DNA of 42,332 bases from a candidate division TA06 bacterium JGI_Cruoil_03_38_101 (lineage in GTDB: Bacteria; Hydrothermota; UBA3072), in NCBI GenBank assembly GCA_002215665.1, contig NGFL01000001.1:81264-123595 (forward strand). Direction: 5' to 3'. Below are positions 36,405-37,352 of this stretch, piece by piece. The translations under genes and the position numbers were made by a program. Each line of letters begins with the position of its first letter. The stretch's first letter is position 1. Below the pieces are notes generated by a model. The model was not told where the DNA came from, made no database searches, and saw nothing but the letters and a program-made list of their open reading frames with translations.

Positions 36405-37352
36405 TCAATCATTAAATTTAACTTTTCGAGTATCACTTACACAAGACGGCCTATCTGAATTCGGAAAAACGATCTCCCGGATAAAATGAACAATCTCGTT
36501 ATCTGCTTTCGTAGAAAATTTAACTATTACTTCTTCACCCTGGTTTACTTGTATAGGTTCAGCAATTGGGAAAAAGGATTGACACCATTGTGTCAAAGGT
36601 TGATCAGGGGCTGTATCTAGTATAATTCCTCCCGGGAATATAACCCGGAACCAGCCAGCAAGGCCATGACAAAAGCCCTCTCTTACGACTTTGAAATGTT
36701 TCTCTACTTTAAAGTTAGAGTGCTTCGCACACTTCATATCTATGTTAATTATCCTAACAGGATTGCTTAAGATATTATCTAAGTTAAAGGTAGCAATATG
36801 AACATCGTTCGCTTGACAGAATGCAAAATCTGTGTAGTCTATCCCATAGGGTTGTTTCTTCCACCGACCAATCTTCTCATTATATAATTCTCTATCTTCA
36901 ACCAGTGATAGAAATAAACTAACCGTTTCTGGAAGCATTTTCCCTTCAGGTTTTAGAAAGCGGTCTCTTGCAGATGCCAAACTGGGCAACATATTTTCCT
37001 GAACGGCAAAAACACCTAACCATTCAGACACTATACAATCGGCCTTTTCAGGAATGTCAACCTCTTCTGCCCTACCCTTTATAAACTCTATTCGATTTTT
37101 AAAACCATTCCTCTCTGCTATCTGTCTGGCCAAATTTATTATCCCTGTGGGCTCAATAGCATATACCTTCTTGGCTCCTGCCTTAGCAGCAAATAGAGCA
37201 AGAATTCCTGTTCCTGTACCTACATCAATAACAATATCACCATCTCTTACATTGGCTTCGATGGCTCTTTGATATGTCTTTGTTCGTATACTATCTGATA
37301 GCATCAAATCATGGATTCTTAATGAATCATATTTTGGTATAAAGAATGAAAT
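36405..37352 (-). CDS. Eukaryote-type protein arginine N-methyltransferase (PRMT)-like enzyme, probable AUU start
   Basis: Y..[27 protein letters not shown], VYAIE, double-E loop [21 protein letters not shown], beta-barrel with GLAGWF, THW-equivalent TQW. Confidence 0.85.
   Translation of the reverse strand: [315 protein letters not shown]

Follow-up and report, generated by a model that had tools for sequence, protein, structure and literature searches.

An intact gene for a minimal protein arginine methyltransferase (PRMT) family member is carried on an integron-type gene cassette of the candidate division TA06 bacterium JGI_Cruoil_03_38_101. The stretch of DNA analysed, hereafter the window, comprises 42,332 nt of contig NGFL01000001.1 (C1) in the source genome assembly GCA_002215665.1 (G000; 95% complete, 73 contigs); related loci are numbered in an L series (L009–L020 etc.) and homologous proteins in a P series (P0001–P0017 etc.). 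The reading favoured here, to which we give about two chances in three, is that this gene, on a promoterless and probably fixed cassette, encodes an enzyme that methylates arginine, likely in a protein or peptide, with monomethylarginine (MMA) formed first. As we picture it from the sequence and a structural model, S-adenosylmethionine (SAM) would be bound at motif I, at E67 of the post-I motif and at R23, and the guanidinium group of the substrate would be placed between the double-E glutamates E110 and E119. The histidine of the canonical THW loop would be replaced by Q255 (Glu in nearly all close relatives), whose carbonyl or carboxylate oxygen would hydrogen-bond the guanidinium much as Q329 does in TbPRMT7, and the methyl group would then pass to an omega nitrogen held by E110, E119 and Q255. 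Because both type I methionines, M17 and M121, are kept, the product would most likely be MMA, perhaps carried onward to asymmetric dimethylarginine (ADMA), and since the whole type I scaffold is retained, an arginine in a protein or peptide is the default and most likely substrate. The promoterless cassette would have moved among distant anaerobes, and in this genome it is probably fixed in an array for which the assembly shows no integrase, where it would be read through from upstream genes and translated from an ATT start.

An earlier note on this DNA had described a PRMT carried as a cassette, with TQW in place of the THW loop, and its finding is real and its interpretation largely right. 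Every PRMT hallmark that it named was found in the translation of 36405–37400 (minus strand), in the order and at the coordinates given. A class I SAM-binding domain is present, with motif I (VxDVGxGxG pattern) and post-I VYAIE67 aligned to PRMT1, PRMT8 and Hmt1, and this half of the protein matches the usual class I Pfam models, while residues 145–285 match PRMT_C (PF22528) at 78.7 bits against a cut-off of 27 (E 6.3e-22). Across 39 aligned sequences, D20, R23, G45/47/49, E110 and W256 never vary, E67, M17 and T254 almost never do, and 90% or more of the sequences have E119; both type I methionines and every SAM ligand are present. When chains of the Protein Data Bank (PDB) were searched with phmmer, the best match was yeast Hmt1 (1g6q, 8.6e-51), followed by PRMT8, PRMT6, PRMT1, PRMT3, CARM1 and PRMT2 (type I chains, 8.6e-51 to 1e-44), and the chains of PRMT9, PRMT7 and TbPRMT7 were far weaker (1e-25 to 6e-20). 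An AlphaFold2 model built from the 39-sequence alignment (mean pLDDT 94.8, pTM 0.91) has a Rossmann domain and a strand-rich C-terminal domain, with strands between residues 185 and 307 at high confidence; its helices 154–165 and 174–181 would occupy the position expected of the dimerisation arm. In Foldseek searches against the PDB the model matched PRMT1 (1ori; TMq 0.89, rmsd 2.2, 313 columns) and PRMT8 (5dst; TMq 0.91, rmsd 1.8), with TbPRMT1, PRMT6, CARM1, PRMT3 and PRMT2 among the further top matches, and both the beta-barrel and the double-E loop are present in it. Taken together, the alignments and the model support a minimal single-domain PRMT-family member that would consist of a Rossmann domain, an arm and a beta-barrel. 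No hydrophobic, signal-like N-terminus is visible in the protein sequence, in keeping with the cytoplasmic location proposed earlier.

Several other assignments were considered and rejected. An L11 methyltransferase (PrmA) was set aside because the equivalog score is far under its cut-off (TIGR00406, 39.3 bits against 183.15), with NF001790, NF001785 and NF001786 likewise far below theirs. A type III, PRMT7-like enzyme fared no better, the PRMT7 chains scoring 4e-20 to 6e-20 against 1e-50 for type I, and the Gln of the THW loop is the one trait in common. For a role in defence, PADLOC returned only "mad2" over the Rossmann part (residues 33–155), a generic match, since an unrelated methyltransferase of the window gives it as well. 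For a phage role, PHROGs gave only weak methyltransferase matches; among viral contigs, 127 of 407 candidate stretches were relatives, and the best 80 of those 127 never match past query residue 168 and so never cover the beta-barrel, which leaves no sign of a phage link in them.

The label "eukaryote-type" used in the earlier note is misleading, however, given the size of the bacterial radiation. A HMMER pass over 1.84 billion representatives of 50%-identity clusters recovered 1,951 clusters, spread over many bacterial phyla, at E ≤ 1e-30, a number that rises to 7,691 at E ≤ 1e-10, and a scan of one genome per prokaryotic species gave at least 600 candidate stretches, at least 321 of which encode relatives. 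The best 80 of these relatives come from Myxococcota, Planctomycetota, Acidobacteriota, Actinomycetota, Desulfobacterota, Cyanobacteria, Chloroflexota, Verrucomicrobiota, Gammaproteobacteria and two metagenome-assembled genomes (MAGs) of Woesearchaeota, and are 26–46% identical to the window protein, against 28–33% for the solved eukaryotic PRMTs. By this comparison the protein is part of a large, mostly bacterial radiation, and the family is not unusual in bacteria. Among the open-access papers listed by a phrase search and judged by title, with subscription papers outside the search, PMC3417536 was the only one on bacterial enzymes, and the terms "integron", "gene cassettes" and "arginine methyltransferase" occurred together in a single open-access paper, on eukaryotic transposons. 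Bacterial PRMT homologues are many in the databases and discussed solely computationally in the searchable literature. Generic automatic annotation, as had been anticipated, is seen among the relatives: their labels include "UbiE", "SAM-dependent methyltransferase" and "PRMT1" as well as "50S ribosomal protein L11 methyltransferase".

The altered part of the active site is the THW loop, which reads T254-Q255-W256, with the threonine and tryptophan retained. In the phmmer alignments to PDB chains, TQW falls on THW (LTQW on YTHW) and the double-E segment, SEWLG...E, falls on SEWMG...E (SEWMGYFLLYE). An alignment of 117 sequences, made up of the window protein and 116 homologues no shorter than 250 aa, shows THW in 76, SHW in 7, TEW in 13, TQW in 3 and other triplets in the remainder, and every TEW or TQW sequence is at least 67% identical to the window protein. 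Conversely, the 17 sequences at or above that identity, the window included, comprise 13 with TEW, 3 with TQW and 1 with THW (P0014). In a maximum-likelihood tree of 47 rows, one clade (35 rows, support 98/97), with THW as its outer state, unites the proteins of about 315 aa; the window and four TEW sequences make up a starred five-row set (95/89), and the other two TQW sequences, P0008 and P0009, form a separate pair. The codon for residue 255 is CAA in the window against GAA or GAG in all nine related loci examined, relatives in two further metagenomes have G at its first base, as in the Glu loci, and among the 138 other nearest 50%-cluster representatives position 255 is Glu in none, Gln in one and His in 88. 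These codons and the tree point to TEW as the signature of the clade and to the glutamine of the window as a secondary, one-base change from glutamate.

Published work on other PRMTs suggests that Gln or Glu at this position would be compatible with activity. In TbPRMT7, according to PMC8226133, Q329 of the THW loop hydrogen-bonds the guanidino group through its amide oxygen, and the E181D/Q329A variant forms symmetric dimethylarginine (SDMA) (PMC8226133; PMC12471008). In PRMT1, according to PMC8619983, the THW loop is part of the arginine pocket and stabilises the N-terminal helices, and H293S alone retains MMA and ADMA formation, whereas together with M48F it yields SDMA. By analogy, Gln or Glu at position 255 could bear on product type, so that the distinct product specificity raised in the earlier note is a possibility. 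As a separate observation within the 35-row clade, Lys7 accompanies Glu or Gln255 in 15 of 16 sequences and Glu7 accompanies His255 in 11 of 17 (window 37332–37334 for residue 7 and 36588–36590 for residue 255), a pattern that resembles a charge swap linking the N-terminal helix with the THW loop. A compensating exchange of K7/E255 for E7/H255 is broken by P0017 (D7 with E255) and by one K7 sequence of the THW group, and because of these exceptions, and of 24 discriminating positions that may stem from a single branch, it was not used as evidence.

The start of the gene is itself unusual. Position 37352 holds an ATT codon, four codons after an in-frame TAG; with ATG, GTG and TTG starts alone the open reading frame (ORF) is just 300 aa, from 37307, with table-11 starts it opens at the adjacent ATT (37355), and the database copy (P0001) has 299 aa. 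Close homologues begin with M[SP]FFIPKY precisely at the 37352 codon, which supports the start proposed in the earlier note, and in all nine related loci examined that codon is ATG. Most likely, then, the window gene has undergone an ATG-to-ATT change and translation still begins there. In Logan contigs of the likely source metagenome neither the start codon nor the codon for Gln varies. The frame runs over 315 codons with no stop and no frameshift, and pairwise dN/dS is 0.127–0.206 between the window and eight related loci, against 0.078–0.269 among those loci. The ratios show purifying selection on the window lineage as on the others, which argues for a working gene.

That the gene is a cassette was established by comparing its copies. 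A metagenome scan yielded 27 loci, 15 of them with PRMT copies or fragments 73–88% identical to that of the window, and tblastn found none of 13 window neighbour proteins in any of the 27. Upstream, similarity begins at GTTAG/AxT GAAATTGCGGTTCAATA..GGAG..ATG in L009, L010, L011/L012 and L013, and ahead of this boundary each has a different palindromic sequence; downstream, the 27 nt after the stop, through the R'' box ATCTAAC, are conserved in seven of seven copies, and a site of roughly 90 nt, ending in GTTA[AT]A[TC], is common to the window, L010 and L011. The same unit thus stands in different contexts, between G/TT boundaries. When the bottom strands at L010 and L011 are folded as single-stranded DNA, each site gives a 5-bp terminal stem, a 4-nt gap, a second stem of 11–12 bp and a centre that varies (z −3.55 for L010, −2.82 for L011), and L009b, a site unrelated to these, takes the same shape (z −1.08); this we take to be the R''-L''...L'-R' architecture of an integron attC site, with crossover at G/TT. 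Moreover, the attC core at 36320–36396 occurs on 62, 47 and 124 contigs in three metagenomes, each from a different study, diverging on both sides, at a summed depth of 1,460–3,149 against at most 39 for the PRMT gene, as would be expected of a repeated recombination site.

Comparison with the rest of the host genomes supports movement of this cassette between distantly related anaerobes. In L020 the PRMT is 82% identical to that of the window, against 46% for accA, 37% for pdxA and 38% for dprA (relative to G000), and in L015 and L018 it is 73–74% identical, against 31–58% for the neighbours. The closest PheS other than the genome's own among 5.8 billion proteins is 74% identical, and the nearest named one, at 72%, belongs to a "candidate division WOR-3" MAG. 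PRMT_C occurs in 2 of 201 genomes sampled from the phylum, and the 40 closest genomes hold no PRMT match better than E 2e-8, the weak matches being limited to the Rossmann half. The second PRMT_C genome, G063 (L121, contig C21), has a distant THW form with its halves in different frames, either a frameshift or a sequencing error.

The claim that the gene is mobile needs division: cassette carriage and transfer stand, and this particular copy looks immobilised. Its upstream R' box reads ATT, and its own attC is non-canonical, a hybrid whose 3' half is unlike that of its relatives; other metagenome copies continue past the attC core with a canonical L'-R' (loose-end consensus). Given the degenerate R' boxes and the hybrid, non-folding attC, the cassette is probably no longer excisable here, as judged from its sites. 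Other sites in the window are recognisable by pattern. ATAAACAA followed by GTTAGGC matches twice against 0.02 expected, and a pattern taken from another G000 contig matches twice (at 37381–37458 and 36010–36037) against 0.00 expected. A 29-nt consensus of the class-2 attC had no window match at up to three mismatches, where shorter patterns matched, and a MAFFT alignment of six attC sites was not structurally coherent. A regex-plus-fold attC scan was discarded as well, having returned only coding-region palindromes; it missed the real sites because R' belongs to the adjoining cassette.

Some further peculiarities of these sites were noted. The first base of R' is A rather than G in at least four sites (window 37387, C61 ~1137 and ~1926, L015 ~5970), the boxes reading ATTATCT, ATTATAT twice and ATTAAAG, with GTT in sister copies (L017 compared with L015; L011 compared with C61); this recurrence suggests that the crossover base either tolerates variation or mutates directionally. 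The PRMT attC has shrunk to 20 nt in L013 (1543–1562) and 27 nt in L020 (6961–6987), with R' almost directly after R'', and the L020 gene, which has accA on one side and unrelated genes on the other, lacks a GTT box upstream; both copies look like other "fixed" ones. Finally, in L009 (2710–2830) and L014 (1100–1290) R'' is followed by a different, longer conserved element, TAACACATATTAAAGGC...GCACAAATAAC, which also lies downstream of the TPR gene of the window (~41680–41805, minus strand).

The left 32 kb of the window carries chromosomal genes (thrS, infC, pheST, rny, ymdB, folD, xseA, rpoN, lpt genes and a XerC/D-like recombinase), and from about 32.5 kb to the end there are small genes, all on the minus strand, with attC-family sequences between them. 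The contig ends 1,259 nt past the window in the same repeat family, so the array reaches the contig end, and three small contigs of the same bin, C54, C61 and C63, carry the same attC families. Upstream of the PRMT gene lies a rubrerythrin–PAS_10–desulfoferrodoxin block, and no promoter- or terminator-like site was seen on the minus strand between desulfoferrodoxin and the PRMT gene; read from the sequence, the gene may be transcribed from this oxidative-stress block. Since the neighbours differ in all other loci, the adjacency is uninformative on function. Rubrerythrin was also tried as a test of whether the block is native, and was rejected because its 52–60% identity in relatives follows no gradient of kinship and thus says nothing on the matter. 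Rfam gave no family match in 32400–42332 at E ≤ 1, and hence no riboswitch upstream.

Several observations weigh against the favoured reading and are gathered here. The histidine that defines the THW loop is absent. Expression from the ATT start may be low, or translation may start at an internal TTG or ATG, with loss of the N-terminal helix. The cassette's own attC (36297–36392), folded as single-stranded DNA, forms internal hairpins only and no terminal stems, and no integron integrase was found in G000, where the best TIGR02249 scores (79.9 and 73.5 bits, cut-off 265) belong to XerC/D-like genes whose matches skip the IntI-specific middle. A search of 121 phylum genomes gave no IntI at E ≤ 1e-40, with controls that likewise gave nothing, and tblastn with the Xer-like recombinase of the window found no integrase in the related loci; an array of this kind resembles the integrase-free attC clusters known as CALIN. 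The next cassette differs in L010, L011 and L013, and no substrate or partner gene travels along. Lastly, in the likely source run the contig on the chromosome side and the contig that carries the PRMT differ in depth and overlap by just 30 nt, inside a 77-nt repeat; the PRMT block may be present in part of the population, or misjoined.

Some of these points would fit a decaying or silent remnant, stranded between degenerate recombination sites, which we regard as very improbable. Such decay might account for the departure of the window from its nine relatives at both the start codon and codon 255, for the R' boxes ATT, GTC and TTT and the attC without a canonical fold, and for a terminal branch (0.08) that is the longest in the five-row set. 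A remnant would scarcely be expected, however, to keep an open frame throughout or a dN/dS to relatives (0.13–0.21) equal to that among the relatives themselves; an ATT behind a strong AGGAGG is a legitimate table-11 start, and glutamine also occurs in P0008, P0009 and the active TbPRMT7 (PMC8226133).

The depth difference raises another alternative, namely that in most cells the block is absent from this place, as a strain-variable insert or through misassembly across the attC repeat; host and neighbours would then be uncertain, with no consequence for the gene as such. In the likely source run a 10,141-nt contig of word depth 68.4 covers 36200–36378 on the chromosome side, and a 3,899-nt contig of depth 38.6, which runs from 36349 to about the next attC-like boundary, judging by its length, carries the stretch from the PRMT to the 161-aa gene; the two meet inside the repeat (36349–36378), whose shared segment 36320–36396 is carried by many contigs at a summed depth of 1,460–2,987, and the window lies close to a contig end in the same repeat family. 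This alternative is unlikely, if still to be taken seriously, since 36200–37028 is bridged without differences both by the MAG contig and, in run X2, perhaps not an independent run, by a contig of 33,470 nt, and the hybrid attC junction is contained within the deeper contig and is therefore real DNA. The block also has a G+C of 0.35–0.43, like the remaining window, and the three small contigs mentioned above share its attC family.

A further alternative concerns the substrate. Instead of a protein, the enzyme might methylate a free guanidino small molecule, such as L-arginine, an antibiotic or toxin, or an Arg-containing natural peptide, in which case the cassette would serve for detoxification or resistance. 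As an integron cassette it belongs to a class of adaptive genes that stand alone, and it does its work unaided in unrelated hosts, with housekeeping proteins just 31–58% identical, so its target must be universal or external; the third acidic or polar pocket residue (E/Q255) is, in addition, unique to the clade. SznE/StzE shares the PRMT fold. It is an arginine-guanidino methyltransferase acting on free L-arginine (PMC11705231), and bacterial relatives are described as peptide methylases (PMC3417536). We nevertheless hold a small-molecule substrate, though a serious rival, to be improbable, because the type I protein-substrate scaffold is intact (N-terminal helix, beta-barrel and arm), no biosynthetic or transport gene lies beside the cassette, and the acidic pI of the clade (5.0–5.6 in 10 of 11 sampled members; 6.3 for the window protein) suits the binding of basic protein tails.

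Glycine-arginine-rich (GAR) tails are classical PRMT1 substrates, and for this reason three RG/GR-dense ORFs, found in a scan of 2,670 ORFs of G000, are candidate targets. The strongest encodes 115 aa, with a putative Fe-S cluster domain (PF04060, 2.1e-09) at the N-terminus and some ten RG repeats, GRGMGRGLGRGLGRGMGRGMGRGFGRG, in its C-terminal tail. It is conceivable, though we think it a long shot, that a minimal PRMT, traded horizontally among distantly related anaerobes of sediment and sea, with a Glu/Gln "triple-acid" pocket and a product or substrate specificity of its own, acts on host GAR tails, with this Fe-S protein as a candidate example, or on incoming Arg-rich peptides, and is selectable without a partner. 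The features of the window, together with this candidate target on contig C27, are collected in Table 1.

Table 1. Positions of the PRMT cassette, its recombination sites and neighbouring features (window coordinates unless a contig is named).
Feature	Position	Strand	Remarks
PRMT-family methyltransferase coding sequence	36405..37352	minus	315 aa; ATT start; TGA at 36405
Key PRMT residues			M17, D20, R23; motif I G45/G47/G49; post-I E67; double-E E110/E119; M121; T254-Q255-W256
AGGAGG ribosome-binding site	37358..37363	minus	5 nt ahead of ATT start; read from sequence
attC-like site upstream of PRMT cassette	37381..37458	minus	R''-like ACCAAAC; ends CGACC then ATTATCT; L stem GATAAAAG/CTTTTATC kept; R' ATTATCT (A for expected G)
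PRMT cassette 5' boundary	after base 37387
PRMT cassette's own attC	36297..36391	minus	R'' ATCTAAC (36385-36391) and centre match relatives
Own attC, 3' half	36297-36320		TTGCAAAGCCTGGGAAT and GTTAAAC; unlike relatives, resembles another attC type
Stub of following cassette	36146..36296	minus	ATG at 36267; short frame into promoter-bearing repeat
attC 3' half, degenerate R'	36010..36037	minus	...TTATCCGAAAAAC then TTTAGCC
Split OmpW-like gene	35242-35706 and 35742-35966	minus	frameshift or pseudogene possible
Short attC-like remnant	35193..35224	minus	CTACAAC...GAAAAAC then GTTTGGC
Rubrerythrin–PAS_10–desulfoferrodoxin block	37529..38935	minus	upstream of PRMT
Nearest upstream promoter-like site	38961-38988	minus	ahead of rubrerythrin
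attC-like site after 185-aa membrane-protein gene	38995..39080	minus	R'' CAATAAC; ...GGGAAC then GTCAGAT, then GAAATC
OmpW-like paralogue	39712-40197		161 aa
Second attC class boundary	40227..40245	minus	GGATATAAACAA then GTTAGGC
Second copy of class-2 boundary	40568..40586	minus	AGCTATAAACAA then GTTAGGC
TPR protein gene	41913-42332, on to C1 end		141-nt tandem repeats; 3 window copies, 81-100% identity, further copies past the window
RG-repeat Fe-S protein (L206)	C27 9449-9796	minus	candidate target, lead only

Two observations on the surrounding array stand apart from the PRMT gene. A promoter-bearing repeat (TTGACA, 16–17 nt, TATACT or TATATT) lies on the minus strand at 36107–36145, 40348–40386 and 32858–32896, with an 11/12 match at 36112–36139, and also on C54 (~115–280 and ~1960–2090). 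Longer copies of about 90–170 nt end in an attC-like hairpin and GTTA. The element precedes a number of cassette genes, which looks as though a promoter travels with some of the cassettes. The OmpW-like gene seems to be split into a 74-aa ORF with a signal-peptide-like start and, 35 nt on, a 154-aa ORF for the OmpW C-terminus.

If the favoured reading is true, one of the many uncharacterised integron cassettes would gain a named biochemical function, and arginine methylation would be a trait that can be acquired as a single mobile gene. The stand-alone, 315-aa form would be a convenient minimal model for PRMT catalysis, and it naturally has Glu/Gln in place of His at a position that is known to direct the type of product. 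The gene also illustrates an annotation pitfall, being readily truncated on account of its ATT start and mislabelled as a generic or L11 methyltransferase.

The finding can be placed among several known systems. Like integron cassettes and CALIN arrays, the element is a single ORF without a promoter, and after it comes an imperfect palindrome whose ends read AAC...GTT; it is bounded at G/TT and present in different arrays, always in one orientation. It differs in the absence of IntI from the assembly, in mutations of several R' boxes and in the hybrid nature of the PRMT attC. With PrmA the protein shares the class I SAM-binding domain (Pfam PrmA 8.9e-12, residues 29–137), and the PRMT beta-barrel, the double-E loop and the THW loop are absent from PrmA. 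The "peptide methylases" described by Aravind and co-workers belong to the same bacterial radiation, but those reported in PMC3417536 lie in secondary-metabolite operons or are fused to synthetases, whereas the window PRMT is a solitary gene on an integron cassette. TbPRMT7, a type III enzyme that carries out monomethylation only, has Gln at the THW-loop position (PMC8226133), as the window protein does, but its 4m36 match (5e-20) is aligned only up to residue 254, and the window protein, unlike TbPRMT7, keeps a Met at the position of PRMT1 M48. Closest of all are the type I PRMTs (Hmt1, PRMT1, PRMT8, PRMT6, PRMT3 and CARM1), which have the same two-domain fold with arm (TM 0.82–0.91) and share motif I, post-I, double-E, motif III, both methionines and the Thr and Trp of the THW loop. 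From these the window protein differs in its 28–33% identity over structural alignments, in having no N-terminal extension or extra domain, in being bacterial and mobile, and in Gln (Glu in relatives) for the THW histidine; in the double-E motif of PRMT1, SEWMGYCLFYESM (PMC8619983), Y148 and Y152, as counted from E144/E153, correspond to V114 and Q118. What is new is thus a minimal, cassette-borne, horizontally moving clade within the known PRMT family, and not a new kind of system.

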